From an uncultured Elusimicrobia bacterium (GTDB taxonomy: Bacteria > Elusimicrobiota > Elusimicrobia > UBA1565 > UBA9628): a DNA stretch of 64,000 nt. Made by a program: the position numbers and the translations under genes. Shown here in pieces: positions 32,964 through 64,000 of the stretch; within the stretch, counting starts at the first letter, position 1, and every line of letters begins with the position of its first letter. The notes under the pieces are model-generated. The model was not told where the DNA came from, did no database searches, and saw nothing but the letters and a program-made list of their open reading frames with translations. Where the stretch lies: NCBI GenBank assembly GCA_965283875.1, contig CBDIQC010000001.1, positions 1,086,378 through 1,150,377 on the forward strand, given 5' to 3'.

Positions 32964-33093
32964 GCCCGCCGTCCCGAGGACCCGGATTGGCTAGGCCCAA
33001 AGAATTCGCGAAATGACCCCTGTGGTCTCATTCGCCCGAACGACGGTCCGCGATAGAATCAGGATTCGACGTACCCAAATCAGTGGAGGCCTA

Positions 33094-45747: not shown

Positions 45748-45820
45748 CCGCGGCCTATATAACCCCGTGGGGGCGGTATGTCAATCAATTTCAAATACAA
45801 CCTTCGCTCCTTGCGCGACC

Positions 45821-46622: not shown

Positions 46623-46645
46623 CCGATTGATGTATTTGAAATTGA

Positions 46646-46674
46646 TTGACAGCCCCCGGGCGCGGGGCTATATA
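46646..46674 (+). promoter_or_regulatory. strong consensus-like sigma70 promoter TTGACA-17-TATATA directly upstream of RHS1; transcript would be leaderless or nearly so
   Basis: ttgaca 46646-51, tatata 46669-74, ATG 46684; the same ggggctatataggtgttcgcATG block recurs before RHS3 (56416-56437). Confidence 0.5.
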
Positions 46675-46683
46675 GGTGTTCGC

Positions 46684-49600
46684 ATGCCCCTCTTTCGCCG
46701 CCGCCTGTCCGTCGTTCTTAGCGCGCTGATAGCCTGCCCGTCATCTCTCCTGGCGCGCGTGCTCGACCCCATCGTCTTGCCCACCGCCGTGGTCACCGTC
46801 GTGCCCGCTCGAGATGACAATCCCAAGGGCCCCACGACCAGCGCCGCGCCCATCCCCGACGCCGTCTCGGCGTCTTTAGGCGCCGGCGACTCGCCCGCGA
46901 CTGACGGCGCAGACGGCAAAGTCGCGCTTCAGTCCACGCCCGCCTCACGGCTTCCCTGCGGCTCGCCGGCCCTCGACGCCGCGCCGCGTTTCCACAGCGG
47001 CAGCACGGTATCCACGCCTTGGGGCCTGGGCTGGTCCTCCGACCTCGATCATCAGCTCATCGTCGAGTCATCCCACACGGTGGTCTGGCTTGACGGCAAC
47101 GCCAACCGCGTCAGGCTGTTTAGAAGCGGCTCTAACCCGGCCCCGCCCCACGTCTATAACGCGCCTTCGGGGCTTTTCGTCAGGTTGACCGTCACCGGGC
47201 TGCTCTCAGGTCAACCCGGCACCGCCTCGCTTCGCGAAAAAGACGGCACCGTGCGTACTTTTAGCCGTCTCAACACGAATACGCCGCTCTACCTCACCGG
47301 CCTCACCGACCGCAACGGCAACACCGTCGCCTATACCCGCGTCTCGGGCCTGCTCACCAAAGTCTTAGACGTCCACGGCCGCTTCATCGACCTCACCTAC
47401 GACGCCTCAGACCGCGTCGCGTCCTTAACCGACTCGGCCGGGCGCACCTTCACCCACACCTACGACGCCCAAGGCCGCCGGCTCACTGAAAACGGCCCTG
47501 ACGGCTTGACCACCTACGCCTATGACGCGGGTAACCGCATCTCCCGGCTGACTTACCCCGACGGCGGCGTTAAGAACTTCACCTACGACGCCCAAGGCCG
47601 CGTGCTCACCGAAGACGACGGCGCGGGCGTTAACCGCCGCGCCTACGAATACCTAGCCGACCGCACCCGCGTTACCGACGCCGATAACGGCGTGACTACC
47701 ACCGAGTTCATCCAACGCGACGGCCTTAAAAAGCCCACCCGCGTCACCGACCCCGAAGGCCGCGTAACGACCTACACCTATGACGCGGCCTTTAACCTCG
47801 CCACCGTCACCGACCCCTTAAGCCGAATCACGCGTTACACCTACGACGCCCGCGGCAACGTCACCGTGACCCAGGACCCCGCCGGTGGATTCACCTTAGC
47901 CAGCTACGAGCCGGTTTTCGACATGCCCACCCAACTCACCAGCCCGCGAAGCCTCGTGACCACCTTAAGCTACGACGCCAAGGGCAACCTGACCACCGCG
48001 CTCGACCCCGCCGGTCAAAGCACCCAAAGAACCTACGACAGCTTCGGCCACCTCGCCACCGAGCGCGACCCCCGCAGCCAAACCACCGCCTTCACCTATA
48101 AAAGCGCCAACGGCGCGCTGGCCACGGTCACCGACCCAGAAGGCCGGGTGACCACGCTTACCACCGACGCCTTAAGCCGCGTTACCCGCAGCCTCGACGC
48201 CAAGGGCAAGGCCACCGATTACCAATACGACGCCTCGGGCAACCTGACCCAGGTCACCGACGACTTGGGCGGGGTGACCAGCTATCAATACGAACCCGGC
48301 CGTCCCAGCAAGCGCCTAATTAGCGTCACCGACGCCAAGAACCACACGACCAGCTTCCAGTACGACGGCCACGGCCGCTTAATCTCGGTAAGCAACGCCT
48401 TAAACCAGGCCCGCGGCTCGGTCTATGACGCCAAGGGCATGTTAACCCAGACCACTAATGCCCGCGGCCAGGTCATCAGCTACGACTACGACGGGGCGGG
48501 ACGCTTAACGGGCAAGGCCACGCCTGATGGTGCCTACAGCTACGCCTATGACCTAGCGGGCAACCTCACCTCGGTGAGCAACCAAAACGGCTCAGTCGCC
48601 ATGACCTACGACGCGCTTAACCGCGTCATCCAGGTGACCCAAAGCGTGCCCCCCGCAGCGCCGGTAATCATCGCCTATAGCTACGACGCCGACGGCAACC
48701 GCATCACGATGACAACGCCTTGGGGCAACTTCGCCTATGCCTACGACAACGCTAATCGCCTGACACGCATCACTAACCCCCAAAACGGCCACTTCGACTT
48801 CGATTACGACCTGGCAAGCCGACGGACAGAGCTGACTTACCCTAACGGCGTCATCACCACCTACGCCTATGACGACGCGGGTCAGGCCACGAGCATCGTC
48901 CACCGCAAAGGCGCCGGCGGCCCGATTATCGCGCGGGCCGACTACCAATACGACCTGGCGGGCAACCGGACCTCGATGACGGACCAAGACGGCCTGCACG
49001 CCTTCGACTACGACGACCTGCACCGCTTAACCGAGGCATTACACCCCAGCACGAACACCTTAGTCCAAGCCGAGACCTTCAGCTACGACGCGGTGGGCAA
49101 CCGGCTGGCGGATGCCCAAATCACGGGCTACACTTACGACAACGCCGACAGGCTGACGCAAAGCAGCAGCTTCACCTATACCTACGACGCCGACGGCAAC
49201 ATGACCAGTCGCACCGACCGGGCCACGAACTTGACGACCACCTTCGACTACGACAGCGAGAACCGGCTTACCGGCGCGCAACTGCCGGGCGGGCCCAATT
49301 GGACCTACAAGTACGACGCGTTAGGCCGACGCGTCCAGAAGTCGTCGGGGACCGCACCCAGCCAAATCACGCGCTACAGCTACGACGGCCAAGACATCAT
49401 CGCGACCAAGGCGGGTGACGACGCGTTAACCGGCGTGTACACCCACGGCGGGGGCATAGACGAGCCATTGGCGCTAGTGGCGAGCCAAGTCCACTTCATG
49501 CACGCTGATGCGCTCGGCTCGATAGTCGCTCACACGAGCCTGACCGGCGACCTACAGGAGCGCGTCAGCTACACGGCTTACGGGCAGGCAAGATTTAGCA

Positions 49601-50157
49601 ATGTCAGTGGTAGCACGAGCGCGGTGTCAGCGACGGGGAGCCCGTTCGCGTTTACGGCCCGAGAACTAGATGACGAGACGGGCCTATACTTCCACCGCAA
49701 CCGCCAGACTTATGAACCCGGGGCGGGGAGGTTCTTTCAGGCTGATCCGATAGGAATTGCGGGTGGGGTAAATACATACGCATACGTTGATTCCAACCCT
49801 CAGCGGTTTACCGACGCGTTTGGATTAAGCCCTGTCGAAGCAGACGTAAGTAATCAACGTGATTGGGGTGAGCAGGGAATTGAGCCTACGTACTTAGAGG
49901 TAGACGCCGTCTTGGCTGGAGTTGGTGGCGCCCCTTTCGCTGCAAACCGAATGTGCCAATTGAGTACTGGAAAGCCATTGAAGGCGTTCTTTAGATTTGA
50001 GATTGGCTCGTTCGGCAATCTGAGCGCTTCCGGTGCCGCCGGGAAAATAAGAACAAGACATTTCAATATAGGCGAACTCCATATTTTGATTAATCCTTTT
50101 AAGTACAGATATCTGACCGGGTCAGTATTTAAATTTTGGTGGAAGAAGCCAAAATGA
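46684..50157 (+). CDS. RHS-repeat polymorphic toxin 1 (full length, Sec signal peptide, YD repeats, RHS core ending ...DPxGL, ~110-aa unknown C-terminal toxin)
   Basis: signal peptide MPLFRRRLSVVLSALIACPSSLLA; dozens of YD repeats (YxYDxxGN/R); ...GRFFQADPIGIAGG...NPQRFTDAFGL then divergent AT-richer tip. Confidence 0.9.
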   Translation: MPLFRRRLSVVLSALIACPSSLLARVLDPIVLPTAVVTVVPARDDNPKGPTTSAAPIPDAVSASLGAGDSPATDGADGKVALQSTPASRLPCGSPALDAAPRFHSGSTVSTPWGLGWSSDLDHQLIVESSHTVVWLDGNANRVRLFRSGSNPAPPHVYNAPSGLFVRLTVTGLLSGQPGTASLREKDGTVRTFSRLNTNTPLYLTGLTDRNGNTVAYTRVSGLLTKVLDVHGRFIDLTYDASDRVASLTDSAGRTFTHTYDAQGRRLTENGPDGLTTYAYDAGNRISRLTYPDGGVKNFTYDAQGRVLTEDDGAGVNRRAYEYLADRTRVTDADNGVTTTEFIQRDGLKKPTRVTDPEGRVTTYTYDAAFNLATVTDPLSRITRYTYDARGNVTVTQDPAGGFTLASYEPVFDMPTQLTSPRSLVTTLSYDAKGNLTTALDPAGQSTQRTYDSFGHLATERDPRSQTTAFTYKSANGALATVTDPEGRVTTLTTDALSRVTRSLDAKGKATDYQYDASGNLTQVTDDLGGVTSYQYEPGRPSKRLISVTDAKNHTTSFQYDGHGRLISVSNALNQARGSVYDAKGMLTQTTNARGQVISYDYDGAGRLTGKATPDGAYSYAYDLAGNLTSVSNQNGSVAMTYDALNRVIQVTQSVPPAAPVIIAYSYDADGNRITMTTPWGNFAYAYDNANRLTRITNPQNGHFDFDYDLASRRTELTYPNGVITTYAYDDAGQATSIVHRKGAGGPIIARADYQYDLAGNRTSMTDQDGLHAFDYDDLHRLTEALHPSTNTLVQAETFSYDAVGNRLADAQITGYTYDNADRLTQSSSFTYTYDADGNMTSRTDRATNLTTTFDYDSENRLTGAQLPGGPNWTYKYDALGRRVQKSSGTAPSQITRYSYDGQDIIATKAGDDALTGVYTHGGGIDEPLALVASQVHFMHADALGSIVAHTSLTGDLQERVSYTAYGQARFSNVSGSTSAVSATGSPFAFTARELDDETGLYFHRNRQTYEPGAGRFFQADPIGIAGGVNTYAYVDSNPQRFTDAFGLSPVEADVSNQRDWGEQGIEPTYLEVDAVLAGVGGAPFAANRMCQLSTGKPLKAFFRFEIGSFGNLSASGAAGKIRTRHFNIGELHILINPFKYRYLTGSVFKFWWKKPK

Positions 50158-50750
50158 ACACCTCAGAATCTGATTACGTCATCATGAAACAACCAGTAGA
50201 TGCTTGGGCCCGTGATGCGGGCTGGGCCGACTACGACTCGAGCATTCAAATCTTCACGTTAAACCCCGGAATTATTTGCAACGAACAAGGCTGCCTCCTT
50301 GCGGAGTTGCTGGGGGCTTTTAGGAGTGGCCATCCGCACTCGGGTTTTATCATTGAGGATAAGTGGGCTCTGGGTCTCCATAAAGAAATTGGTGGCGCGC
50401 GGCAGATTGTCAAAAACGGAGCAAGCTACCTCTTTATTCAAGATCCCGCACTCGACGAGATCTCGAGTCTGTTTCGTCAGCACTGGAATGATATTGGGTT
50501 CGTTTTTACGGTTCGCTCTCAGCTGGAATCCGAGCGCAGCGTAGATGCGCTAATTACTGCATACGAAACAGAGCGGTGTGGACAGTTCCTGGAAAATTCC
50601 ATAGCCCACCTGCTGACTACCGGACACGATAACAACTTTATTTTTCTAGCGACAAAATCCGAGTTCACCGCCCTACAAGCACAAATAAAATCTATGTGTG
50701 AGAAATACGGCAAAACACTAAAAATTATCACGGGAGCTCGAAGAGGATAG
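50154..50750 (+). CDS. putative cognate immunity protein 1 (soluble, 198 aa)
   Basis: ATGA overlap with RHS1 stop; AT-rich; no TM, consistent with cytoplasm-acting toxin. Confidence 0.55.
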   Translation: MNTSESDYVIMKQPVDAWARDAGWADYDSSIQIFTLNPGIICNEQGCLLAELLGAFRSGHPHSGFIIEDKWALGLHKEIGGARQIVKNGASYLFIQDPALDEISSLFRQHWNDIGFVFTVRSQLESERSVDALITAYETERCGQFLENSIAHLLTTGHDNNFIFLATKSEFTALQAQIKSMCEKYGKTLKIITGARRG

Positions 50751-53700
50751 TTGTCGCGGTTTTTTTCGTGCCGCCGCCTGTGCGTCGTTCTCTGCGCGCT
50801 GATAGCCTGCCCGTCATCTCTCCTGGCGCGCGTGCTCGACCCCATCGTCTTGCCCACCGCCGTGGTCACCGTCGTGCCCGCTCGAGATGACAATCCCAAG
50901 GGCCCCACGACCAGCGCCGCGCCCATCCCGGACGCCGTGTCGTCATCTTTAGGCGCGGGCGACTCGCCCGCGACTGACGGCGCAGACGGCAAAGTCGCGC
51001 TTCAGTCCACTCCCGTCTCACGCCTTCCCTGCGGCTCCCCGGCGCTCGACGCCGCCCCGCGTTTCCACAGCGGCAGCACGGTCTTAACGCCTTGGGGCCT
51101 GGGCTGGTCCTCCGACCTCGACCACCAGCTCATCGTCGAATCATCTCACACGGTGGTCTGGCTCGACGGCAACGCTAATCGCGTCCGGCTGTTTCGCAGC
51201 GGCTCTAACCCGGCACCGCCACACGTCTATAACGCGCCTTCGGGGCTCTTCGTCAGGCTTACCGTCACCGGGCTGCTATCAGGCCAGCCGGGGACCGCCT
51301 CTCTTCGCGAAAAAGATGGCACTGTTCGCACCTTTAATCGTAGCAACGTCAACACGCCGCTCTACCTCACCGGCCTCATCGACCGCAACGGCAACACCGT
51401 CGCTTACACCCGCGTCTCGGGCCTGCTCACCAAAGTCTTAGACGTCCACGGCCGCTTCATCGACCTCACCTACGACGCCTCAGACCGCGTCGCGTCCTTA
51501 ACCGACTCGGCCGGGCGCACCTTCACCCACACCTACGACGCCCAAGGCCGCCGGCTCACTGAAAACGGCCCTGACGGCTTGACCACCTACGCCTATGACG
51601 CGGGTAACCGCATCTCCCGGCTGACTTACCCCGACGGCGGCGTTAAGAACTTCACCTACGACGCCCAAGGCCGCGTGCTCACCGAAGACGACGGCGCGGG
51701 CGTTAACCGCCGCGCCTATGAATACCTAGCCGACCGCACCCGCGTCACCGACGCCGATAACGGCGTGACTACCACCGAGTTCATCCAACGCGACGGCCTT
51801 AAAAAGCCCACCCGCGTCACCGACCCCGAAGGCCGCGTAACGACCTACACCTATGACGCGGCCTTTAACCTCGCCACCGTCACCGACCCCTTAAGCCGAA
51901 TCACGCGTTACACCTACGACGCCCGCGGCAACGTCACCGTGACCCAGGACCCCGCCGGTGGATTCACCTTAGCCAGCTACGAGCCGGTTTTCGACATGCC
52001 CACCCAACTCACCAGCCCGCGAAGCCTCGTGACCACCTTAAGCTACGACGCCAAGGGCAACCTGACCACCGCGCTCGACCCCGCCGGTCAAAGCACCCAA
52101 AGAACCTACGACAGCTTCGGCCACCTCGCCACCGAGCGCGACCCCCGCAGCCAAACCACCGCCTTCACCTATAAAAGCGCCAACGGCGCGCTGGCCACGG
52201 TCACCGACCCAGAAGGCCGGGTGACCACGCTTACCACCGACGCCTTAAGCCGCGTTACCCGCAGCCTCGACGCCAAGGGCAAGGCCACCGATTACCAATA
52301 CGACGCCTCGGGCAACCTGACCCAGGTCACCGACGACTTGGGCGGGGTGACCAGCTATCAATACGAACCCGGCCGTCCCAGCAAGCGCCTAATTAGCGTG
52401 ACCGACGCCAAGAACCACACGACCAGCTTCCAGTACGACGGCCACGGCCGCTTAATCTCGGTAAGCAACGCCTTAAACCAGGCCCGCGGCTCGGTCTATG
52501 ACGCCAAGGGCATGTTAACCCAGACCACTAATGCCCGCGGCCAGGTCATCAGCTACGACTACGACGGGGCGGGACGCTTAACGGGCAAGGCCACGCCTGA
52601 TGGTGCCTACAGCTACGCCTATGACCTAGCGGGCAACCTCACCTCGGTGAGCAACCAAAACGGCTCAGTCGCCATGACCTACGACGCGCTTAACCGCGTC
52701 ATCCAGGTGACCCAAAGCGTGCCCCCCGCAGCGCCGGTAATCATCGCCTATAGCTACGACGCCGACGGCAACCGCATCACGATGACAACGCCTTGGGGCA
52801 ACTTCGCCTATGCCTACGACAACGCTAATCGCCTGACACGCATCACCAACCCCCAAAACGGCCACTTCGACTTCGATTACGACCTGGCAAGCCGACGGAC
52901 CAGGCTGACTTACCCTAACGGCGTCATCACCACCTACGCTTACGACGACGCGGGTCAGGCGACCAGCATCGTCCACCGCAAAGGCGCCGGCGGCCCGATT
53001 ATCGCGCGGGCCGACTACCAATACGACCTGGCGGGCAACCGGACCTCGATGACGGACCAAGACGGCCTGCACGCCTTCGACTACGACGACCTGCACCGCT
53101 TAACCGAGGCATTACACCCCAGCACGAACACCTTAGTCCAAGCCGAGACCTTCAGCTACGACGCGGTGGGCAACCGGCTGGCGGATGCGCTCATTGGGGG
53201 CTACACTTACGACAGCGCCGATAGGCTCACGCAAAGCAGCAGCTTCACCTATACCTACGACGCCGACGGCAACATGACCAGTCGCACCGACCGGGCCACG
53301 AACTTGACGACCACCTTCGACTACGACAGCGAGAACCGGCTTACCGGCGCGCAACTGCCGGGCGGGCCCAATTGGACCTACAAGTACGACGCGTTAGGCA
53401 GACGCGTTCAGAAGTCGTCGGGGACCGCACCCAGTCAAATCACGCGCTACAGCTACGACGGCCAGGACATCATCGCGATGAGGGCGGGCGACGACGGGCT
53501 TAAGGCGGTCTATACGCACGGCGGGGGCATAGACGAGCCATTGGCGCTAGCGGCGAGCCAAGTCCACTTCATGCACGCTGATGCGCTCGGCTCGATAGTC
53601 GCTCACACGAGCCTGACCGGCGACCTACAGGAACGAATCAGCTACACGGCTTACGGGCAGGCAAGATTTAGCAATCTCAGTGGTAGCACGAGCGCGGTGT

Positions 53701-54263
53701 CGGTGACGGGCAGCCCGTTCGCGTTTACGGCGCGCGAGCTCGACGACGAGGCCGGGTTGTATTTCCACCGCAACCGCCAGACTTATGAGCCCGGGGCGGG
53801 GAGGTTTTTTCAGGCCGATCCGATCGGCATGCATGGCGGAATAAATCTTTTCGCGTATGGTGAAAACAACCCACTATCTAAAATCGATCCTTTCGGGACC
53901 GATGTGCTTCTTGTCCGTCAAGGCGCAAAAGAGTTTTTCCATGAGGTGGTGTATATCGGAAACCCACAGGCGGGATATACCAAGTTCGAATTCTCCCCAG
54001 CGACTTCAAGAACGCTACTGGTTTTGCCACTCGATTGGCCCGGGGTAGCATTTTATACGCCGTTAGCGCCAAAAGTGAAAGGTACAGTCGTTCGGCAATT
54101 TCCGCAAAGTGCCGATTTAGATGCGCTTGCTGTTATCCGTGGGCGCTCCAAAATCAAAGCCGGATGGGAAGACATGCCGTACAACCTTTACTCGAGAAAT
54201 TGTCGGGCGTTCTCGAGAACACTCTACTCAGAACTTACGACGAGCATGGGGCCATCACGGTGA
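50751..54263 (+). CDS. RHS-repeat polymorphic toxin 2 (TTG start; >95% identical body to RHS1; LRAT/NlpC-P60-like C-terminal toxin)
   Basis: same signal peptide core (ALIACPSSLLARVLDPIV); tip after ...NPLSKIDPFGT contains H (FFHEVVYIG) and C (YNLYSRNCRAF) in LRAT-like order. Confidence 0.85.
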   Translation: MSRFFSCRRLCVVLCALIACPSSLLARVLDPIVLPTAVVTVVPARDDNPKGPTTSAAPIPDAVSSSLGAGDSPATDGADGKVALQSTPVSRLPCGSPALDAAPRFHSGSTVLTPWGLGWSSDLDHQLIVESSHTVVWLDGNANRVRLFRSGSNPAPPHVYNAPSGLFVRLTVTGLLSGQPGTASLREKDGTVRTFNRSNVNTPLYLTGLIDRNGNTVAYTRVSGLLTKVLDVHGRFIDLTYDASDRVASLTDSAGRTFTHTYDAQGRRLTENGPDGLTTYAYDAGNRISRLTYPDGGVKNFTYDAQGRVLTEDDGAGVNRRAYEYLADRTRVTDADNGVTTTEFIQRDGLKKPTRVTDPEGRVTTYTYDAAFNLATVTDPLSRITRYTYDARGNVTVTQDPAGGFTLASYEPVFDMPTQLTSPRSLVTTLSYDAKGNLTTALDPAGQSTQRTYDSFGHLATERDPRSQTTAFTYKSANGALATVTDPEGRVTTLTTDALSRVTRSLDAKGKATDYQYDASGNLTQVTDDLGGVTSYQYEPGRPSKRLISVTDAKNHTTSFQYDGHGRLISVSNALNQARGSVYDAKGMLTQTTNARGQVISYDYDGAGRLTGKATPDGAYSYAYDLAGNLTSVSNQNGSVAMTYDALNRVIQVTQSVPPAAPVIIAYSYDADGNRITMTTPWGNFAYAYDNANRLTRITNPQNGHFDFDYDLASRRTRLTYPNGVITTYAYDDAGQATSIVHRKGAGGPIIARADYQYDLAGNRTSMTDQDGLHAFDYDDLHRLTEALHPSTNTLVQAETFSYDAVGNRLADALIGGYTYDSADRLTQSSSFTYTYDADGNMTSRTDRATNLTTTFDYDSENRLTGAQLPGGPNWTYKYDALGRRVQKSSGTAPSQITRYSYDGQDIIAMRAGDDGLKAVYTHGGGIDEPLALAASQVHFMHADALGSIVAHTSLTGDLQERISYTAYGQARFSNLSGSTSAVSVTGSPFAFTARELDDEAGLYFHRNRQTYEPGAGRFFQADPIGMHGGINLFAYGENNPLSKIDPFGTDVLLVRQGAKEFFHEVVYIGNPQAGYTKFEFSPATSRTLLVLPLDWPGVAFYTPLAPKVKGTVVRQFPQSADLDALAVIRGRSKIKAGWEDMPYNLYSRNCRAFSRTLYSELTTSMGPSR

Positions 54264-54562
54264 TACAAGCCACTCCAATCGTTCGTTCGATTGGCAAAGC
54301 GTTATCCTGGCTTCTGACGGCCTATCTGCTCCTCTACCTTACAGGGTTCGTGTTCGCCTACATGCAAAGCATTCCGGATCGTTGGGAATCGCCGTTGCTA
54401 CGGGGGTTCGGCTACGTTCTAACGGCAACTGCACTAATTCTGGCGTACGCAATTCCGCTGATGTACGTAAATGCAAAGAAGTCAGATTATCAATCAAGGT
54501 TGCGTCGATGGTTTGCTGTGGAAGTTGTCTCGATAGCACTTCTTATTGCGTATACATATTAG
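54260..54562 (+). CDS. putative immunity protein 2 (small 3-TM membrane protein, GTG start overlapping RHS2 stop)
   Basis: GTGA overlap; hydrophobic helices LSWLLTAYLLLYLTGFVFAY, FGYVLTATALILAYAIPLMYV, FAVEVVSIALLIAY. Confidence 0.45.
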   Translation: MIQATPIVRSIGKALSWLLTAYLLLYLTGFVFAYMQSIPDRWESPLLRGFGYVLTATALILAYAIPLMYVNAKKSDYQSRLRRWFAVEVVSIALLIAYTY

Positions 54563-54592
54563 TAGCAAGCCCGAGCATCGGCCTACGACGAC

Positions 54593-55957
54593 ATGGGCCG
54601 CTTAATGCAGACCGTCAACGCCCGCGGCCATACCGCTACCTACGCCTACGACGACGCGGGCCAGGCGACCAGCATCGTCCATCGCAAAGGCGCGGGCGGC
54701 CCGGTTATCGCGCGGGCCGACTACCAATACGACGCGGCAGGCAACCGGACCTCGATGACGGACCAAGACGGCCAGCACGCCTTCGACTACGACGACCTGC
54801 ACCGCTTAACCGAGGCCGTTCACCCCAGCACGAACACCTTAGTCCAAGCCGAGACCTTCAGCTACGACGCGGTGGGCAACCGGCTGGCGGATGCGCTCAT
54901 TGGGGGCTACACTTACGACAGCGCCGATAGGCTCACGCAAAGCAGCAGCTTCACCTATACCTACGACGCCGACGGCAACATGACCAGTCGCACCGACCGG
55001 GCCACGAACTTGACGACCACCTTCGACTACGACAGCGAGAACCGGCTTACCGGCGCGCAACTGCCGGGCGGGCCTAGCTGGACGTATAAATACGACGCCT
55101 TGGGGCGGCGCGTTCAGAAATCGTCGGGGACCGCACCCAGCCAAATCACGCGCTACAGCTACGACGGCCAAGACATCATCGCGACCAAGGCGGGCGACGA
55201 CGGGCTGAAGGCGGTCTATACGCACGGTGGCGGCATAGACGAGCCGCTGGCCCAGGTGGGTGAAGACGTTCACTTCATGCACGCTGATGCGCTCGGCTCA
55301 GTCGTGGCGCACACGAGCCTGACCGGCGACCTACAGGAGCGCGTCAGCTACACGGCTTACGGGCAGGCAAGATTTAGCAATCTCAGTGGTAGCACGAGCG
55401 CGGTGTCAACTACGGGGAGCCCGTTCGCGTTCACGGCCCGAGAACTAGACGACGAGACGGGCCTATACTTCCACCGCAATCGCCAGACTTATGAGCCGGG
55501 GGCGGGGAGGTTCTTTCAGGCCGACCCGATTGGGATTGCGGGTGGAGTGAATGTTTACGCGTATGTAGAAGGGCGACCGACCAAGCTGAGCGACCCCTAC
55601 GGCCTATTTATGTTCGAAGGAGGCATCTCTGGAATCGGTGATTTTATTCACAACTATATCGAGCTTAGAGCTGCGAACCGGGAGCAGAATTTAAGCGGAA
55701 CGGATAAGTACTATCACTGCAAAGCTAACTGTGAGTCGAGCAGCAGAGGTGCGGGAGGATTCGCTGTCGCATGCGCCGCATCGGTAACCCGAGAAGTGTT
55801 AGACATGCGAATCAAATCCTCGCCCGTCGATGACAGCGCCAAGGACATGCTTGCGAACATCTACGGGGCAGCAAGTGGCCGAGGTGCCAGTGCTCCAAGT
55901 CGTTGCCGTCAGATATGCGAGCCATTCCGCCCCAAAACGCTGGATCCAAAATATTAA
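54593..55957 (+). CDS. orphan 5'-truncated RHS C-terminal module with serum-amyloid-A (SAA)-like toxin tip
   Basis: begins mid-repeat after tandem stops (tagtag); RHS core ...RPTKLSDPYGL; tip DKYYHCKANCESSSRGAGGFAVA ... PFRPKTLDPKY aligns with SAA [23 protein letters not shown] ... HFRPAGLPEKY. Confidence 0.7.
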   Translation: MGRLMQTVNARGHTATYAYDDAGQATSIVHRKGAGGPVIARADYQYDAAGNRTSMTDQDGQHAFDYDDLHRLTEAVHPSTNTLVQAETFSYDAVGNRLADALIGGYTYDSADRLTQSSSFTYTYDADGNMTSRTDRATNLTTTFDYDSENRLTGAQLPGGPSWTYKYDALGRRVQKSSGTAPSQITRYSYDGQDIIATKAGDDGLKAVYTHGGGIDEPLAQVGEDVHFMHADALGSVVAHTSLTGDLQERVSYTAYGQARFSNLSGSTSAVSTTGSPFAFTARELDDETGLYFHRNRQTYEPGAGRFFQADPIGIAGGVNVYAYVEGRPTKLSDPYGLFMFEGGISGIGDFIHNYIELRAANREQNLSGTDKYYHCKANCESSSRGAGGFAVACAASVTREVLDMRIKSSPVDDSAKDMLANIYGAASGRGASAPSRCRQICEPFRPKTLDPKY

Positions 55958-55959
55958 CA

Positions 55960-56391
55960 ATGAAAGTCAACGCCCCAATCGCGGCAATACTATTCCTGAC
56001 GGCCGTACTAGCTTCATCGTGTGGATTCGAACGAGTGAATAACTACTACCCGGATTATGTGGCGGCCAACAAAACCTCGAATGATTATCTCCCGAAATTT
56101 ATGCCGAAGAACGCCACGCTGATTTATGAACAGCATGATTTCGACACCAATGAATCTTGGGTAGCGTTTAGGTTTATCGAGCAGGATATTGCGAGCATCG
56201 AGGCGGCGTGCACATCGACAGGGGCGCCGCCTTCGCGTCTACCCATAAATATTATTGGGTTGAAAAGACGCTGGTGGTATCGATACCCACTGGATTCAAC
56301 TGCTACACGCCAACTAATCCGTGGCTGTAGCGGTGGTGGCTCAATATACATCGACCAGCCAAATAGTGTCGCCTATTTCTGGCGTCGGTAA
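55960..56391 (+). CDS. putative immunity lipoprotein for the SAA-like tip
   Basis: starts 3 nt after orphan stop; MKVNAPIAAILFLTAVLASSCG lipoprotein signal; AT-rich. Confidence 0.5.
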   Translation: MKVNAPIAAILFLTAVLASSCGFERVNNYYPDYVAANKTSNDYLPKFMPKNATLIYEQHDFDTNESWVAFRFIEQDIASIEAACTSTGAPPSRLPINIIGLKRRWWYRYPLDSTATRQLIRGCSGGGSIYIDQPNSVAYFWRR

Positions 56392-56434
56392 TTTATTCAC
56401 AGCCTCTTGGCGGCGGGGCTATATAGGTGTTCGC

Positions 56435-59400
56435 ATGCTCCTCTTTCGCCGCCGCCTGTCCGTCGTTCTTAGCGCGCTGATAGCCTGCCCGTCATCTCTC
56501 CTGGCGCGCGTTCTCGACCCCATCGTCTTGCCCACCGCCGTGGTCACCGTCGTGCCCGCTCGAGATGACAATCCCAAGGGCCCCACGACCAGCGCCGCGC
56601 CCATCCCGGACGCCGTGTCGTCATCTTTAGGCGCGGGCGACTCGCCCGCGACTGACGGCGCAGACGGCAAAGTCGCGCTTCAGTCCACTCCCGTCTCACG
56701 CCTTCCCTGCGGCTCCCCGGCGCTCGACGCCGCCCCGCGTTTCCACAGCGGCAGCACGGTCTTAACGCCTTGGGGCCTGGGCTGGTCCTCCGACCTCGAC
56801 CACCAGCTCATCGTCGAATCATCTCACACGGTGGTCTGGCTCGACGGCAACGCTAATCGCGTCCGGCTGTTTCGCAGCGGCTCTAACCCGGCACCGCCAC
56901 ACGTCTATAACGCGCCTTCGGGGCTTTTCGTCAGGTTGACCGTCACCGGGCTGCTCTCAGGTCAGCCGGGTACCGCGTCTTTGCGCGAAAAAGACGGCAC
57001 GGTGCGCACCTTTAACCGCAGCAATATAAACTCGCCGCTATACCTCACCGGCCTCGTTGACCGCAACGGCAACACCGTCAGCTACACCCGCGTCTCGGGC
57101 CTGCTCACCAGGGTCTTAGACGTCCACGGCCGCTTCATCGACCTCACCTACGACGCCTCAGACCGCGTCGCGTCCTTAACCGACTCGGCCGGGCGCACCT
57201 TCACCCACACCTACGACGCCCAAGGCCGCCGGCTCACTGAAAACGGCCCTGACGGCTTGACCACCTACGCCTATGACGCGGGTAACCGCATCTCCCGGCT
57301 GACTTACCCCGACGGCGGCGTTAAGAACTTCACCTACGACGCCCAAGGCCGCGTGCTCACCGAAGACGACGGCGCGGGCGTTAACCGCCGCGCCTATGAA
57401 TACCTAGCCGACCGCACCCGCGTCACCGACGCCGATAACGGCGTGACTACCACCGAGTTCATCCAACGCGACGGCCTTAAAAAGCCCACCCGCGTCACCG
57501 ACCCCGAAGGCCGCGTAACGACCTACACCTATGACGCGGCCTTTAACCTCGCCACCGTCACCGACCCCTTAAGCCGAATCACGCGTTACACCTACGACGC
57601 CCGCGGCAACGTCACCGTGACCCAGGACCCCGCCGGTGGATTCACCTTAGCCAGCTACGAGCCGGTTTTCGACATGCCCACTTTGCTCACCAGCCCGCGA
57701 AGCCTCGTGACCACCTTAAGCTACGACGCCAAGGGCAACCTGACCACCGCGCTCGACCCCGCCGGTCAAAGCACCCAAAGAACCTACGACAGCTTCGGCC
57801 ACCTCGCCACCGAGCGCGACCCCCGCAGCCAAACCACCGCCTTCACCTATAAAAGCGCCAACGGCGCGCTGGCCACGGTCACCGACCCAGAAGGCCGGGT
57901 GACCACGCTTACCACCGACGCCTTAAGCCGCGTTACCCGCAGCCTCGACGCCAAGGGCAAGGCCACCGATTACCAATACGACGCCTCGGGCAACCTGACC
58001 CAGGTCACCGACGACTTGGGCGGGGTGACCAGCTATCAATACGAACCCGGCCGTCCCAGCAAGCGCCTAATTAGCGTCACCGACGCCAAGAACCACACGA
58101 CCAGCTTCCAGTACGACGGCCACGGCCGCTTAATCTCGGTAAGCAACGCCTTAAACCAGGCCCGCGGCTCGACCTACGACGCCAAGGGCATGTTAACCCA
58201 GACCACTAATGCCCGCGGCCAGGTCATCAGCTACGACTACGACGGGGCGGGTCGCTTAACGGGCAAGGCCACGCCTGATGGTGCTTACAGCTACGCCTAT
58301 GACCTAGCGGGCAACCTCACCTCGGTGAGCAACCAAAACGGCTCAGTCGCCATGACCTACGACGCGCTTAACCGCGTCACCCAGGTGACCCAAAGCGTGC
58401 CCCCCGCAGCGCCGGTAATCATCGCCTATAGCTACGACGCCGACGGCAACCGCACAAGCATGACAACGCCTTGGGGCAACTTCGCCTATGCCTACGACAA
58501 CGCTAATCGCCTGACACGCATCACTAACCCCCAAAACGGCCACTTCGACTTCGATTACGACCTGGCAAGCCGACGGACCAGGCTGACTTACCCTAACGGC
58601 GTCATCACCACCTACGCTTACGACGACGCGGGCCAGGCGACCAACATCGTTCACCGCAAAGGCGCCGGCGGCCCGATTATCGCGCGGGCCGACTACCAAT
58701 ACGACGCGGCGGGCAACCGCACGCAGTTAACCGACCTAGACGGCCTGCACGCCTTCGACTACGACGACCTGCACCGCTTAACCGAGGCATTGCACCCCAG
58801 CACGAACACCTTAGTCCAAGCCGAGACCTTCAGCTACGACGCGGTGGGCAACCGACTGGCGGATGCCGAGGTTACGGGCTACACTTACGACAGCGCCAAC
58901 CGGCTCACGCAAAGCAGCAGCTTCACCTATACCTACGACGCCGACGGCAACATGACCAGCCGCACCGACCGGGCCACGAACTTGACGACCACCTTCGACT
59001 ACGACAGCGAGAACCGGCTTACCGGCGCGCAACTGCCGGGCGGGCCCAATTGGACCTACAAGTACGACGCGTTAGGCCGACGCGTCCAGAAGTCGTCGGG
59101 GACCGCACCCAGCCAAATCACGCGCTACAGCTACGACGGCCAGGACATCATCGCGACCAAGGCGGGTGACGACGCGTTAACCGGCGTGTACACCCACGGC
59201 GGGGGCATAGACGAGCCATTGGCGCTAGTGGCGAGCCAAGTTCACTTCATGCACGCCGACGCGCTCGGCTCAGTCGTGGCGCACACGAGCCTGACCGGCG
59301 ACCTACAGGAGCGCGTCAGCTACACGGCTTACGGGCAGGCAAGATTTAGCAGTGTCAACGGCAGCACGAGCGCGGTGTCGGTGACGGGGAGCCCGTTCGC

Positions 59401-60004
59401 GTTCACGGCCCGAGAACTAGACGACGAGACGGGCCTATACTTCCACCGCAACCGCCAGACTTATGAGCCGGGGGCGGGGAGGTTCTTTCAGGCGGACCCC
59501 ATTGGGATTGCGGGTGGGGTGAACGTCTATGCGTATGTCGAGGGGCGGCCGACAAAATTGAGCGATCCTTTGGGGCTAATTCGAGATGACCCTGGCGAAA
59601 ACCTCTACTTCTCAGGCAACAATGCCAGCATCTACGCTCTGGAAGCATCGAATCTTGAACTTATTAGTGATTTCTCTGCTGGATTCGGCGACAATATTAG
59701 TCGCGGCGTTACTCGAAATATCAGAGAACGCTTTATTTCTGGCGGCGGCGTAAATCGGTGCGCGACCGCCTATAGTATTGGAAACGCTACTGGCGTTGGG
59801 TTTTATATCGCAGGCGGTGTTTTAGGTGGAGCTCGAGTAGGTGCGAGCGTTGCTGCCACTCACAGCGGGGCAATTAGTAAATGGTTAAGCCAAGGACAAT
59901 TATGGCGAGTTGGTCGTTCTGGCGGAGCCAACAACCGGGTGCTCCGGATTGGGCCCTGGAAGTCAAAATGGAATCACATCGACTTGTCAATCTTCGGGTA
60001 TTAA
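56435..60004 (+). CDS. RHS-repeat polymorphic toxin 3 (full length; Gly-zipper-rich C-terminal tip)
   Basis: same promoter/leader and signal peptide as RHS1; tip after ...PTKLSDPLGL contains GVGFYIAGGVLGGARVGASVAA glycine-zipper segment. Confidence 0.9.
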   Translation: MLLFRRRLSVVLSALIACPSSLLARVLDPIVLPTAVVTVVPARDDNPKGPTTSAAPIPDAVSSSLGAGDSPATDGADGKVALQSTPVSRLPCGSPALDAAPRFHSGSTVLTPWGLGWSSDLDHQLIVESSHTVVWLDGNANRVRLFRSGSNPAPPHVYNAPSGLFVRLTVTGLLSGQPGTASLREKDGTVRTFNRSNINSPLYLTGLVDRNGNTVSYTRVSGLLTRVLDVHGRFIDLTYDASDRVASLTDSAGRTFTHTYDAQGRRLTENGPDGLTTYAYDAGNRISRLTYPDGGVKNFTYDAQGRVLTEDDGAGVNRRAYEYLADRTRVTDADNGVTTTEFIQRDGLKKPTRVTDPEGRVTTYTYDAAFNLATVTDPLSRITRYTYDARGNVTVTQDPAGGFTLASYEPVFDMPTLLTSPRSLVTTLSYDAKGNLTTALDPAGQSTQRTYDSFGHLATERDPRSQTTAFTYKSANGALATVTDPEGRVTTLTTDALSRVTRSLDAKGKATDYQYDASGNLTQVTDDLGGVTSYQYEPGRPSKRLISVTDAKNHTTSFQYDGHGRLISVSNALNQARGSTYDAKGMLTQTTNARGQVISYDYDGAGRLTGKATPDGAYSYAYDLAGNLTSVSNQNGSVAMTYDALNRVTQVTQSVPPAAPVIIAYSYDADGNRTSMTTPWGNFAYAYDNANRLTRITNPQNGHFDFDYDLASRRTRLTYPNGVITTYAYDDAGQATNIVHRKGAGGPIIARADYQYDAAGNRTQLTDLDGLHAFDYDDLHRLTEALHPSTNTLVQAETFSYDAVGNRLADAEVTGYTYDSANRLTQSSSFTYTYDADGNMTSRTDRATNLTTTFDYDSENRLTGAQLPGGPNWTYKYDALGRRVQKSSGTAPSQITRYSYDGQDIIATKAGDDALTGVYTHGGGIDEPLALVASQVHFMHADALGSVVAHTSLTGDLQERVSYTAYGQARFSSVNGSTSAVSVTGSPFAFTARELDDETGLYFHRNRQTYEPGAGRFFQADPIGIAGGVNVYAYVEGRPTKLSDPLGLIRDDPGENLYFSGNNASIYALEASNLELISDFSAGFGDNISRGVTRNIRERFISGGGVNRCATAYSIGNATGVGFYIAGGVLGGARVGASVAATHSGAISKWLSQGQLWRVGRSGGANNRVLRIGPWKSKWNHIDLSIFGY

Positions 60005-60252
60005 TGAGTCCCCCGAAGAACTGTCCTTCTTGCGGCAACAAGCAAGTTCCCGGCACTGATGCTTGTTCCAAATGCGGGCGCCTGCAGTATCGTCAGTTAG
60101 GCGCGCCGCTGCGTATAAGCGCGGGTGTTTTTTCATGCATCATAGTCGCAGGATTATATTTCAATTCAGCATCCTTCCCATTCTGGTCAAATGTTCTGGC
60201 AGCAATTAATGCCTTCTTTTTCTGCTATCTCGCGCTTTTTGGCCGAGTCTAA
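60004..60252 (+). CDS. putative immunity protein 3: zinc-ribbon (CPSC...CSKC) plus 2-TM membrane protein
   Basis: TAATG overlap with RHS3 stop; alternative upstream ATG at 59968 inside RHS3 less likely. Confidence 0.45.
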   Translation: MSPPKNCPSCGNKQVPGTDACSKCGRLQYRQLGAPLRISAGVFSCIIVAGLYFNSASFPFWSNVLAAINAFFFCYLALFGRV

Positions 60253-60269
60253 CGCTTACGACGACATGC

Positions 60270-62480
60270 ATGCTCGACCCCGCCGGTCAAAGCACCCAAA
60301 GAACCTACGACAGCTTCGGCCATCTCGCCACCGAGCGCGACCCCCGCAGCCAAACCACCGCCTTCACCTATAAAAGCGCCAACGGCGCGCTGGCCACGGT
60401 CACCGACCCAGAAGGCCGGGTGACCACGCTTACCACCGACGCCTTAAGCCGCGTTACCCGCAGCCTCGACGCCAAGGGCAAGGCCACCGATTACCAATAC
60501 GACGCCTCGGGCAACCTGACCCAGGTCACCGACGACTTGGGCGGGGTGACCAGTTACCAATACGAGCCCGGCCGCCCCGCCAAGCGCCTAATTAGCGTCA
60601 CCGACGCCAAGAACCACACGACCAGCTTCCAGTACGACGGCCACGGCCGCTTAATCTCGGTAAGCAACGCCTTAAACCAGGCCCGCGGCTCGACCTACGA
60701 CGCCAAGGGCATGTTAACCCAGACCACTAATGCCCGCGGCCAGGTCATCAGCTACGACTACGACGGGGCGGGACGCTTAACGGGCAAGGCCACGCCTGAT
60801 GGTGCCTACAGCTACGCCTATGACCTAGCGGGTAACCTCACCTCGGTGAGCAACCAAAACGGCTCAGTCGCCATGACCTACGACACGCTTAACCGCGTCA
60901 CCCAGGTGACCCAAAGCGTGCCCCCCGCAGCGCCGGTAATCATCGCCTATAGCTACGACGCCGACGGCAACCGCATCACGATGACCACGCCTTGGGGCAA
61001 CTTCGCCTATGCCTACGACAACGCTAATCGCCTGACACGCATCACTAACCCCCAAAACGGCCACTTCGACTTCGATTACGACCTAGCAAGCCGACGGACA
61101 GAGCTGACTTACCCTAACGGCGTCATCACCACCTACGCCTATGACGACGCGGGCCAGGCGACCAGCATCGTTCACCGCAAAGGCGCCGGCGGCCCGATTA
61201 TCGCGCGGGCCGACTACCAATACGACCTGGCGGGCAACCGCACGCAGTTAACCGACCTAGACGGCCAGCACGCCTTCGACTACGACGACCTGCACCGCTT
61301 AACCGAGGCATTACACCCCAGCACGAACACCTTAGTCCAAGCCGAGACCTTCAGCTACGACGCGGTGGGCAACCGGCTGGCGGATGCGCTCATTGGGGGC
61401 TACACTTACGACAGCGCCGATAGGCTCACGCAAAGCAGCAGCTTCACCTATACCTACGACGCCGACGGCAACATGACCAGTCGCACCGACCGGGCCACGA
61501 ACTTGACGACCACCTTCGACTACGACAGCGAGAACCGGCTTACCGGCGCGCAACTGCCGGGCGGGCCCAATTGGACCTACAAGTACGACGCGTTAGGCCG
61601 ACGCGTTCAGAAATCGTCGGGCACCCTGTCGAGCCAAATCACGCGCTACAGCTACGACGGCCAGGACATCATCGCGACCAAGGCGGGTGACGACGCGTTA
61701 ACCGGCGTGTACACCCACGGCGGGGGCATAGACGAGCCATTGGCGCTAGTGGCGAGCCAAGTCCACTTCATGCACGCCGACGCGCTCGGCTCAGTCGTGG
61801 CGCACACGAGCCTGACCGGCGACCTACAGGAGCGCGTCAGCTACACGGCTTACGGGCAGGCAAGATTTAGCAGTGTCAACGGAAGCACGAGCGCGGTGTC
61901 GATGACGGGCAGCCCGTTCGCGTTCACGGCCCGAGAGCTCGACGGCGAAACGCACTTGCATTACTACCGCGGACGCCAGACTTACGACGCCACAACGGGG
62001 AGATTCGGGCAGGATGACCCGGTCCTGCATCCGGGGTATTCCAATCAGGAGTATGCACTGGGCAATCCAGTCAAATACAGGGATCCGATGGGCACGGATG
62101 TGTTGCTTATCGAACGTCATGCCTGGGGAAAATACCATCAAGAAATCTGGGTTGGCAACATCGGAGGATATACGTCATATGGATTCGTGCCGTCGGCCTT
62201 GGGCAAGTATCAGTCGGTTGCAGGATTCGAAGTGAGCGGATCCATACAACCGAATCGAGGCATGAGCTATTCGAAAATACCCTCGTATATTCCATTTGCC
62301 GGCTACACGCTACTGGGCCGTATTAATCAGGACGAATACTCAGACCTAAGACTACGTGCGTATCTCGAAAGTGGAGAGCTCGCAAAAAACTGGAGCCGCT
62401 ATAGTCTGTACTCGCGGAATTGCCAAGATTTTGCCCAGGATGTATTCAGCAAAGTTCTTCATGAGAAAAAAGCGAGATGA
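60270..62480 (+). CDS. orphan 5'-truncated RHS C-terminal module with LRAT/NlpC-like tip (paralog of RHS2 tip)
   Basis: starts mid-repeat (…LDPAGQSTQRTYD) at an internal ATG; tip YHQEIWVGN...YSLYSRNCQDFAQDVF. Confidence 0.75.
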   Translation: MLDPAGQSTQRTYDSFGHLATERDPRSQTTAFTYKSANGALATVTDPEGRVTTLTTDALSRVTRSLDAKGKATDYQYDASGNLTQVTDDLGGVTSYQYEPGRPAKRLISVTDAKNHTTSFQYDGHGRLISVSNALNQARGSTYDAKGMLTQTTNARGQVISYDYDGAGRLTGKATPDGAYSYAYDLAGNLTSVSNQNGSVAMTYDTLNRVTQVTQSVPPAAPVIIAYSYDADGNRITMTTPWGNFAYAYDNANRLTRITNPQNGHFDFDYDLASRRTELTYPNGVITTYAYDDAGQATSIVHRKGAGGPIIARADYQYDLAGNRTQLTDLDGQHAFDYDDLHRLTEALHPSTNTLVQAETFSYDAVGNRLADALIGGYTYDSADRLTQSSSFTYTYDADGNMTSRTDRATNLTTTFDYDSENRLTGAQLPGGPNWTYKYDALGRRVQKSSGTLSSQITRYSYDGQDIIATKAGDDALTGVYTHGGGIDEPLALVASQVHFMHADALGSVVAHTSLTGDLQERVSYTAYGQARFSSVNGSTSAVSMTGSPFAFTARELDGETHLHYYRGRQTYDATTGRFGQDDPVLHPGYSNQEYALGNPVKYRDPMGTDVLLIERHAWGKYHQEIWVGNIGGYTSYGFVPSALGKYQSVAGFEVSGSIQPNRGMSYSKIPSYIPFAGYTLLGRINQDEYSDLRLRAYLESGELAKNWSRYSLYSRNCQDFAQDVFSKVLHEKKAR

Positions 62481-62842
62481 ACTCTCTCAATAGGATTGTT
62501 TGGGCCATATTGTTGGCCATCATAGTGCTCCCTCTGATGTTATACGGGACATCGCTGGCGTTAGGGCTCGGCTCGTTTGCAGTATATTTAATCGCCAATT
62601 CTCAGCATGCAAACAGAGTCCTTGAGTTATATGCCATGGTGATAGTGGCTGGGTTATTTGGCATCCTGCTATGGGCACTTCCGTTTATAGGTTGGAGAGC
62701 AAAGAATCGCCAATCGCGGACCATGTATGCCATAGCGGCGGCGTGGATTGTCCAGATGCTTGTAATTGCCTGCATAGCAGGCTTTGCGAAACAAAAAACG
62801 CCGGCGTTGTTCAACGAATTGCAGATTCGATATATACGTTAA
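62477..62842 (+). CDS. putative immunity protein 4 (4-TM membrane protein)
   Basis: ATGA overlap; four hydrophobic helices; AT-rich. Confidence 0.55.
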   Translation: MNSLNRIVWAILLAIIVLPLMLYGTSLALGLGSFAVYLIANSQHANRVLELYAMVIVAGLFGILLWALPFIGWRAKNRQSRTMYAIAAAWIVQMLVIACIAGFAKQKTPALFNELQIRYIR

Positions 62843-62865
62843 CTTCCGGCCACGTCGCTACCAAT

Positions 62866-64000
62866 CGCGTTACCCGCAGCCTCGACGCCAAGGGCAAGGC
62901 CACCGATTACCAATACGACGCCTCGGGCAACCTGACCCAGGTCACCGACGACTTGGGCGGGGTGACCAGTTACCAATACGAGCCCGGCCGCCCCGCCAAG
63001 CGCCTAATTAGCGTCACCGACGCCAAGAACCACACGACCAGCTTCCAGTACGACGGCCACGGCCGCTTAATCTCGGTAAGCAACGCCTTAAACCAGGCCC
63101 GCGGCTCGACCTACGACGCCAAGGGCATGTTAACCCAGACCACTAATGCCCGCGGCCAGGTCATCAGCTACGACTACGACGGGGCGGGACGCTTAACGGG
63201 CAAGGCCACGCCTGATGGTGCCTACAGCTACGCCTATGACCTAGCGGGTAACCTCACCTCGGTGAGCAACCAAAACGGCTCAGTCGCCATGACCTACGAC
63301 GCGCTTAACCGCGTCATCCAGGTGACCCAAAGCGTGCCCCCCGCAGCGCCGGTAATCATCGCCTATAGCTACGACGCCGACGGCAACCGCATCACGATGA
63401 CAACGCCTTGGGGCAACTTCGCCTATGCCTACGACAACGCTAATCGCCTGACACGCATCACCAACCCCCAAAACGGCCACTTCGACTTCGATTACGACCT
63501 GGCAAGCCGACGGACAGAGCTGACTTACCCTAACGGCGTCATCACCACCTACGCCTATGACGACGCGGGTCAGGCCACGAGCATCGTCCACCGCAAAGGC
63601 GCCGGCGGCCCGATTATCGCGCGGGCCGACTACCAATACGACCTGGCGGGCAACCGGACCTCGATGACGGACCAAGACGGCCTGCACGCCTTCGACTACG
63701 ACGACCTGCACCGCTTAACCGAGGCATTACACCCCAGCACGAACACCTTAGTCCAAGCCGAGACCTTCAGCTACGACGCGGTGGGCAACCGGCTGGCGGA
63801 TGCCCAAATCACGGGCTACACTTACGACAACGCCGACAGGCTGACGCAAAGCAGCAGCTTCACCTATACCTACGACGCCGACGGCAACATGACCAGTCGC
63901 ACCGACCGGGCCACGAACTTGACGACCACCTTCGACTACGACAGCGAGAACCGGCTTACCGGCGCGCAACTGCCGGGCGGGCCCAATTGGACCTACAAGT
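62866..64000 (+). CDS. third orphan RHS fragment (5'-truncated, continues beyond window end)
   Basis: near-identical to RHS1 from ...RVTRSLDAKGKATDYQYD onward; no stop before position 64000 so absent from ORF track. Confidence 0.7.

Follow-up and report, generated by a model that had tools for sequence, protein, structure and literature searches.

A probable Rhs polymorphic-toxin array, well preserved and recombining, in an Elusimicrobiota genome

The rhs loci of enterobacteria and of Snodgrassella combine conserved cores with imported C-terminal tips and recombine from core to core (Jackson 2009; Koskiniemi 2014; Steele 2017, PMC5727410). Their architecture, a full gene followed by its immunity gene and then by orphans, is described by a model of C-terminal displacement (PMC5727410). 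A locus with the same conserved cores, imported tips and core-core recombination occupies 46.6-64.0 kb of a 64,000-nucleotide stretch of DNA from an uncultured Elusimicrobia bacterium (GCA_965283875.1, contig CBDIQC010000001.1), the whole of which is referred to here as the window, and very probably encodes Rhs (YD-repeat) polymorphic toxins of a member of the Elusimicrobiota. It departs from the enterobacterial and Snodgrassella loci in that three full-length frames stand in tandem in one array, in that the proteins begin with an apparent Sec signal peptide whereas the N-terminus of their counterparts is PAAR- or VgrG-linked, and in that the host is a member of the Elusimicrobiota with 69% GC (guanine plus cytosine). 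The locus is conventional in kind, well preserved and actively recombining, and it overturns no current understanding. Its interest lies in extending the classic architecture of a full rhs gene plus orphans to a largely uncultured phylum, and to the poorly understood Sec-exported Rhs toxins of double-membrane bacteria.

Two further groups of YD-repeat proteins bear comparison. WapA of Bacillus subtilis and Streptococcus suis, a contact-dependent toxin of Rhs type exported by Sec (PMC12704120), has in common with the Elusimicrobiota proteins a signal peptide, a YD shell, a polymorphic C-terminal toxin and a downstream immunity gene, and both appear independent of any type VI secretion system (T6SS). 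WapA sits in the wall of single-membrane bacteria, however, whereas the Elusimicrobiota host encodes PorV/PorQ-type outer-membrane proteins, so that its Rhs protein must also cross an outer membrane; no wall-binding domains were detected in these Rhs proteins. The PAAR-Rhs effectors of the T6SS in Photorhabdus and Salmonella (PMC8636562) share the YD shell, the aspartyl self-cleavage motif, the encapsulated toxin and the immunity gene, but possess a PAAR, prePAAR or VgrG-binding region that has no counterpart here, and a cleavable Sec signal would be incompatible with loading onto the cytoplasmic T6SS spike.

Modules of the array and integrity of the assembly

Repeat finding and BLAST delineated six Rhs modules in the window, all on the forward strand. 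Three are full-length frames, namely R1 (46684..50157; 1157 residues comprising a signal peptide, a weak DUF6531 match, the YD shell, the Rhs-associated core and tip 1), R2 (50751..54263; 1170 residues counted from a TTG codon; tip 2) and R3 (56435..60004; 1189 residues; tip 4). The core of R1 is 96.3% identical to that of R2 over 3063 nucleotides (nt) and 95.7% identical to that of R3 over 3134 nt, in keeping with the original prediction of three near-identical RHS genes at 46684, 50751 and 56435. The other three are orphan C-terminal modules, which had been described as truncated genes that start within a YD repeat at 54593, 60270 and 62866, and each indeed joins the common core at a sharp junction inside a YD repeat. 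O1 (54593..55957; 454 residues; tip 3) meets the core at 54638, the equivalent of R1 position 48859; O2 (60270..62480; 736 residues; tip 5) meets it at 60272 (R1 48000); and O3 (62866..64000), which ends at the window edge and is 99% identical to R1 48178-49312, meets it at 62866 (R1 48178). O1 and O2 each have an in-frame ATG at the 5' edge, but near the junction of O3 a start codon is lacking. The upstream edge of O1 carries 45 nt that encode a divergent YD repeat ahead of the core homology. None of the six reading frames contains an internal stop, and six intact, co-oriented Rhs frames far exceed chance expectation.

Two side observations concern the modules. The 12-mer TACGACGACATG has its only two window copies at the 5' edges of O1 (54584-54595) and O2 (60257-60268), in frame in the former (..YDDM..) and out of frame in the latter, and may be a remnant of common donor sequence. 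A fourth full-length paralogue with its own signal peptide (P0123; 1134 residues) lies outside the window on the same 3.1-Mb contig.

Membership of the Rhs family is carried by several profiles. All five complete modules contain YD repeats (PF05593, E 1e-27 to 1e-107, plus TIGR01643), with 4-19 stretches matched by PF05593/TIGR01643 per module, and all five reach 46-65 bits against the Rhs-associated core model TIGR03696 (cutoff 32.5). The core domain is closed by the cleavage motif D[AP]xG[LT], found as DAFGL, DPFGT, DPYGL, DPLGL and DPMGT. The cores of the modules are 90-100% identical, and identity falls to background past R1 position about 49790, just after the motif. At 183-195 bits against a cutoff of 2000, the proteins fall outside NF041261, the enterobacterial RHS core. 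Their closest Rhs relatives are only 50-54% identical. A protein-guided scan of species-representative genomes returned a single relative at 29% identity, in a metagenome-assembled genome of the Alphaproteobacteria (L003), so the lineage appears to be absent from that set, in which a 42-mer from Imm5, the putative immunity gene after tip 5, also had no exact match. For an M1 peptidase encoded nearby, the closest relatives that carry a name (82%, then 64-67% identity) all come from Elusimicrobiota metagenome-assembled genomes.

The original prediction had itself raised the possibility that such repeats are an assembly artefact, namely collapsed or mis-assembled copies of a single gene. More broadly, one or two rhs genes might have been collapsed, expanded or joined into chimeras. 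Short reads have difficulty in resolving stretches that are identical over as much as 653 nt, short-read assemblies of the same organism do break at repeat edges, and a frameshift in the neighbouring regulator gene could be a sequencing error. An artefact is nonetheless highly unlikely, given that tip and immunity gene are peculiar to each module, that core sites differ among the copies at about 4%, and that contigs assembled independently from two further samples agree with two of the junctions at 100% identity. These are Logan contigs assembled from short reads: L002 (SRR24472965) equals window 49712-50823 and spans the junction from tip 1 through Imm1 to R2, and L001 (SRR24472967) equals window 61871-62895 and spans the junction from tip 5 through Imm5 to O3. 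The modules at those junctions are therefore not chimeras, and the two contigs end 73 nt (L002) and 30 nt (L001) into the repeat, where a short-read assembler would break. Five of the proteins (those of R1, R2, R3, O2 and P0123) are recorded on a single NCBI contig of 3,098,302 bp, on which P0001 is identical to the R1 protein; exact-protein look-ups gave no matches for Imm2, Imm3 or the putative immunity protein that follows O1.

Recombination, selection and expression

The copies in the array clearly exchange sequence. The cores of R1, R2 and R3 differ at 180 polymorphic sites, along which the copy that differs from the other two switches blockwise, in 69 runs where 125±6 would be expected (none of 10,000 permutations was as low). 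Stretches of 230-653 nt are identical in now one pair of copies, now another, orphans included (R1=O3, 538 nt; R2=O2, 331 nt; O2=O3, 435 nt). Clustered polymorphism and identical tracts together show repeated gene conversion, of which the locus offers a clean natural example among tandem toxin genes. Where codons differ from copy to copy, synonymous changes predominate (76:23, 74:29 and 65:33), which, with the lack of internal stops, indicates that the cores have been under purifying selection. GC steps down from 0.692 in the flank, as befits the high-GC genome that had been proposed, through 0.62-0.64 for the cores to 0.46-0.52 for the tips and 0.47-0.49 for the immunity genes; the low GC of tips and immunity genes and the divergent YD edge of O1 suggest imported cassettes. 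The mosaic sites, the shared tracts of up to 653 nt and the stepwise drop in GC accord well with the earlier reading of the locus as a reservoir shaped by homologous recombination. From these patterns we infer, indirectly, that tips would be switched within the array.

The history of the array can be reconstructed along the same lines. Low-GC cassettes of core, tip and immunity gene would have recombined into the core and displaced older tips downstream as promoterless orphans, whole genes would have been duplicated by unequal crossing-over, and ongoing gene conversion would account for cores that are at once mosaic and 96% alike. While mosaicism and GC steps are observed, the order of events is our probable reconstruction. 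The architecture agrees with the published C-terminal displacement model (PMC5727410), and a related locus, L004, has the simple form of one full gene and one orphan. Orphan tips could return to use through recombination with a full-length copy.

Expression appears to be unevenly provided for. The region upstream of R1, as read from the sequence, comprises GTATTTGAAATTGA, TTGACA (46646), a 17-nt spacer, TATATA (46669) and, after 9 nt, the ATG (46632..46683, forward strand), and among the Rhs modules R1 alone has the complete promoter element. A degenerate promoter precedes R3 (TTCACA-N18-TATATA-9 nt-ATG; 56396..56434, forward strand); homology with the region upstream of R1 begins at 56390, inside the -35 box, which accounts for the altered hexamer. 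R2 opens with its TTG right after the stop of Imm1, promoter and ATG both having been lost, and its public annotation (P0122) takes an internal GTG start, 27 codons in, that excludes the signal peptide. A generic scan for promoters and terminators performed at chance level and gave no internal promoters above chance; it also missed the R1 promoter because it demands T at the last -10 position. The notion of three full-length genes is therefore sound as far as reading frames go, but it does not extend to independent expression, which only R1 has a full promoter to support and for which R2 has neither ATG nor promoter. Transcription would start at the R1 promoter and probably also at the weaker R3 promoter, with R2, the orphans and all immunity genes presumably served by read-through or translational coupling.

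The same facts can be read as those of an array that is mostly a graveyard, in which R1 and perhaps R3 are active and the rest is inert debris of past displacement, retained solely for immunity genes that guard against neighbours still deploying those tips, and not a switching reservoir. This would explain the R2 frame without ATG and promoter, the O3 frame without a start codon and the restriction of the complete promoter element to R1, and silencing of orphans is documented for certain species, Serratia among them (PMC5727410). We consider it possible, if somewhat unlikely. Each of the six frames, 0.4-3.5 kb in length, is uninterrupted, the differences among them are mostly synonymous, and the conversion tracts R1=O3 (538 nt) and R2=O2 (331 nt) join orphans with full-length genes, which implies that the orphans exchange sequence with expressed genes. 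A living array, whose tips would be exchanged through their shared cores, is preferred in what follows.

Tips and putative immunity genes

The five visible tips begin after D[AP]xG[LT] at 49828, 53901, 55607, 59579 and 62097, and all five are followed directly by a small open reading frame (ORF) at an offset of -4 to +2 nt. Imm1 (50154..50750; 198 residues) and Imm5 (62477..62842; 121 residues) begin in ATGA overlaps at 50154 and 62477, Imm2 (54260..54562; 100 residues) in a GTGA overlap at 54260 and Imm3 (60004..60252; 82 residues), which follows tip 4, in a TAATG overlap at 60004. The ORF after O1 (55960..56391; 143 residues), all of these being on the forward strand, begins at 55960 after a 2-nt gap from the O1 stop without overlap, so that the coupling through ATGA, GTGA or TAATG claimed for every tip is seen at four. 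A cognate immunity gene had likewise been claimed after each tip; the small ORFs are all in place, but their putative immunity role is assigned from position only. As for the proposed minimum of five distinct tip/immunity pairs, there are five pairs but four tip families, because tips 2 and 5 are homologous, the only such relation among the five. The array in this way supplies five tip/putative-immunity pairs, including a serum-amyloid-A (SAA)-like tip and an unannotated but recurrent Rhs-tip family.

Tip 1 of R1 (49828-50157, forward strand; 109 residues) has a weak relationship with the tips that P0123 and P0003 carry. Imm1 has neither a transmembrane segment nor a signal peptide, and no Pfam, NCBIfam or PADLOC match was found for it. 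As a side observation, the P0123 tip is 41% identical to tip 1 and is near the tip of P0003, a protein from another metagenome.

Tip 2 of R2 (53901-54263; 120 residues) and tip 5 of O2 (62097-62480; 127 residues), both on the forward strand, show a His...Cys papain-like arrangement resembling that of PPPDE peptidases. The two are 29% identical, conserve His14 and Cys101, and have a YxLYSRNC motif in common. Their matches to Peptidase_C97 (PPPDE) are below the cutoff (tip 2, E 7e-4 and 20.0 bits; tip 5, E 4e-4 and 20.8 bits; cutoff 29.2) and cover the Cys half alone. An AlphaFold model of tip 2, with a predicted local distance difference test (pLDDT) score of 44, is too poor for a test of the fold, and a homology search with the alignment of tips 2 and 5 came back empty, R2 and O2 being likely hidden inside the 90% cluster of R1. 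Imm2 is hydrophobic, with about three transmembrane segments by inspection and only weak matches to membrane proteins; Imm5 has about four such segments by inspection and no detectable similarity to Imm2 (BLASTP E 0.86). Tips 2 and 5 would seem to be His-Cys papain-like enzymes paired with membrane-protein immunity.

Tip 3 of O1 (55607-55957, forward strand) belongs to prok-SAA, a described polymorphic-toxin tip family of the Lipocone superfamily (Burroughs and Aravind 2025, PMC12419801), and like the published tips it stands at the C-terminus of a polymorphic toxin. It matches PF00277 at E 4e-20 (72.7 bits; cutoff 30.8) and the sequence of the human SAA1 structure (4ip8) at E 1e-7. For every prok-SAA the activity is a prediction, namely the cleavage of lipid-linked head groups at sites beyond the cytoplasm, in the manner of TelC acting on lipid II, and the conserved active-site motif of the family, sNxxGR, is situated in helix 4 (PMC12419801). 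At that position tip 3 reads ANIYGAASGR; the Asn is retained and Gly-Arg is shifted by four residues, so that within ANIYGA the Arg of the motif is unaligned. By analogy with its family, tip 3 would attack lipid-linked envelope precursors outside the cytoplasm. Such a site of action fits the ORF that follows, whose product has a lipoprotein-like N-terminus by inspection (MKVNAPIAAILFLTAVLASSC); no family match was found for this protein.

Tip 4 of R3 (59579-60004, forward strand; 141 residues) typifies the unannotated recurrent family, which comprises 75 representative clusters at E<=1e-3 among 1.84 billion representative proteins (P0245-P0319). Alignment of 16 sequences showed the similarity to run up to the C-terminus, save for P0283, in which the N-terminal half is unaligned, and the long relatives that were scanned (6/6) are all RHS/YD proteins. 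Shared motifs are SNFSAGFGD, GKWLSQGRYWRLG, PTLRIG and NHIDL. Many of the matches, as a side observation, are short orphan-like fragments. No Pfam family and no PDB relative were found for tip 4, and its AlphaFold model is weak (pLDDT 64) and had no Foldseek match to the PDB below E 1. Imm3 has a CxxC...CxxC zinc ribbon, with weak zinc-ribbon matches at E 0.01, and a hydrophobic C-terminal half. Over all tips, the Pfam comparison that had been recommended placed tip 3 in PF00277 and left tips 2 and 5 with their sub-cutoff Peptidase_C97 matches and tip 4 without a family. Profile searches of PDB sequences gave nothing meaningful for tips 1, 2/5 and 4, and PADLOC gave no match for tips or immunity proteins.

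The properties of these pairs also bear on whether they act inside the producer, as growth regulators of the toxin-antitoxin kind. A role of this sort is reported for orphan rhs of Salmonella (PMC7043789), and O1 and O2 have in-frame ATG codons at their 5' edges. We hold it to be very improbable, since three immunity proteins out of five have the look of membrane proteins or lipoproteins and the predicted site of action of the SAA family lies beyond the cytoplasm, both a better fit to delivered toxins, and since internal promoters above chance were absent from the scan. Delivery to other cells is the more natural setting for the tips.

Export and neighbouring genes

The N-termini of the proteins read by inspection as Sec signal peptides, for example MPLFRRRLSVVLSALIACPSSLLA|RV, and signal peptides are kept in Rhs relatives at 44-50% identity. 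Pfam and NCBIfam scans of the Rhs proteins found no PAAR, prePAAR or related domain, and the window holds no T6SS genes. A Sec signal peptide without PAAR implies a delivery route different from the familiar one of the T6SS, and RHS toxins with signal peptides have been classed as a group exported in a Sec-dependent ('T2SS') manner (Zhang et al. 2012, PMC3482391). Judged by family membership, the full-length Rhs protein would be exported by Sec through its cleavable signal peptide, the YD-repeat shell would fold around the C-terminal tip, self-cleavage would occur at D[AP]xG[LT] and the tip would then be delivered to competing bacteria, with the small gene after each tip protecting the producer.

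The shell of these proteins matches the YD shell of teneurin/TcC type (PF25023), and together with the missing T6SS markers this could be taken to mean that they resemble TcC and belong to an ABC (Tc) toxin whose targets are eukaryotic hosts. Such an assignment is extremely unlikely, as neither the window nor five related loci hold a TcA/TcB-type gene or an SpvB or TcdB domain, a small gene stands beside each tip as in antibacterial systems, and the N-terminus is a Sec signal peptide; Pfam scans of the Rhs proteins found no Tc-toxin domains. An antibacterial Rhs array is the reading retained.

Several points nevertheless weigh against this reading. The Rhs proteins yielded no trafficking domain, whether PAAR, VgrG or another, and the cleavage motif of R1, DAFGL, has Ala replacing the Pro of the canonical DPxGL. 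With R2 lacking ATG and promoter and O3 a start codon, some modules may be silent, and the response regulator that adjoins the array is frameshifted. Four of the five tips lack a confident functional assignment, the PPPDE matches of tips 2 and 5 being sub-cutoff, the model of tip 2 unusable and that of tip 4 weak. The comparison with independent assemblies covered two of the five internal junctions (Imm1 to R2 and Imm5 to O3). Finally, toxicity, immunity, secretion and tip switching are each deduced from sequence.

Directly upstream of R1 lies the gene of this OmpR/PhoB-type response regulator (45872..46622, forward strand; PhoB-like, PF00072 38 bits), interrupted by a 1-nt frameshift at about 45968-45986, in CGGCAAATAAGG. 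The repaired protein aligns end to end, at 41-42% identity, with regulators upstream of Rhs genes in the related loci L004 and L007, where the orthologues are intact and in the same position; the copy in the window is either a pseudogene or the product of a homopolymer sequencing error. A metagenome scan with an alignment of the regulator yielded seven short contigs, one of which, L008, is the L004 locus again.

The regulator gene is bracketed by an inverted pair of the promoter element, one, on the forward strand at 46632-46674, facing R1 and the other, on the reverse strand at 45754..45798, facing a divergent gene for a giant TIG protein (same 20-mer-N17-TATATA-8 nt-ATG). The 20-mer, GTATTTGAAATTGATTGACA, occurs exactly twice in the window against an expectation of zero. 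The consensus of the element is an AT-rich palindrome, ATTTSAAAT, abutting TTGACA and followed by N17 and (GGGG)YTATAYA, often only 7-9 nt from the ATG, and it could be a binding site for a regulator. Comparable elements precede the Rhs genes of the related loci L004, L007, L015/16 and L017, and also the giant divergent gene in L004 and L017 (L004, 9092-9108 and 9984-10000; L007, about 9930; L015, 5577 and 5641; L017, 9361 and 9961).

The giant protein itself (39163-45747, reverse strand; 2194 residues) comprises ten TIG domains, a ZU5 domain and a C-terminal sorting domain of type A for the type IX secretion system (T9SS), and its gene overlaps through ATGA with that of a PorV/PorQ-family outer-membrane protein (38285-39166, reverse strand), which follows it; the giant protein is thus cargo of T9SS type in a member of the Elusimicrobiota. 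It was considered as a polymorphic toxin and rejected as such, for its C-terminus is the T9SS sorting domain and it has no tip. The pair of TIG and PorV/PorQ genes also adjoins the related Rhs gene in L017, and the neighbourhood of the giant gene, present in L004, L007 and L017, is missing from L005 and L015/16. In L017, as a separate observation, a PhD/ParE toxin-antitoxin pair (9436-9938) takes the place of the regulator between the giant TIG and Rhs genes.

The shared element and the recurring neighbours suggest that the Rhs and TIG genes may be co-regulated and prove nothing on delivery; a promoter element common to a giant adhesin gene is a lead on regulation and perhaps on delivery. A bolder proposal, rather doubtful on the present record, is that a two-sided promoter around the OmpR regulator drives an adhesin-Rhs module consisting of the T9SS-anchored TIG adhesin, with PorV/PorQ, and the Sec-exported Rhs protein. 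If so, the adhesin would provide cell contact and Rhs the payload in a contact-dependent route of toxin delivery that involves neither a T6SS nor a two-partner system, and the module would be conserved, co-regulated and peculiar to these Elusimicrobiota.

Further upstream, the window contains very large forward-strand ORFs, sparsely annotated if at all and rich in GC at third codon positions, at 26483-31189, 31194-32963 and 33013-38163. Two of them, of 1568 and 589 residues, have no Pfam match, and the other, of 1716 residues, carries a PspA/IM30 domain.

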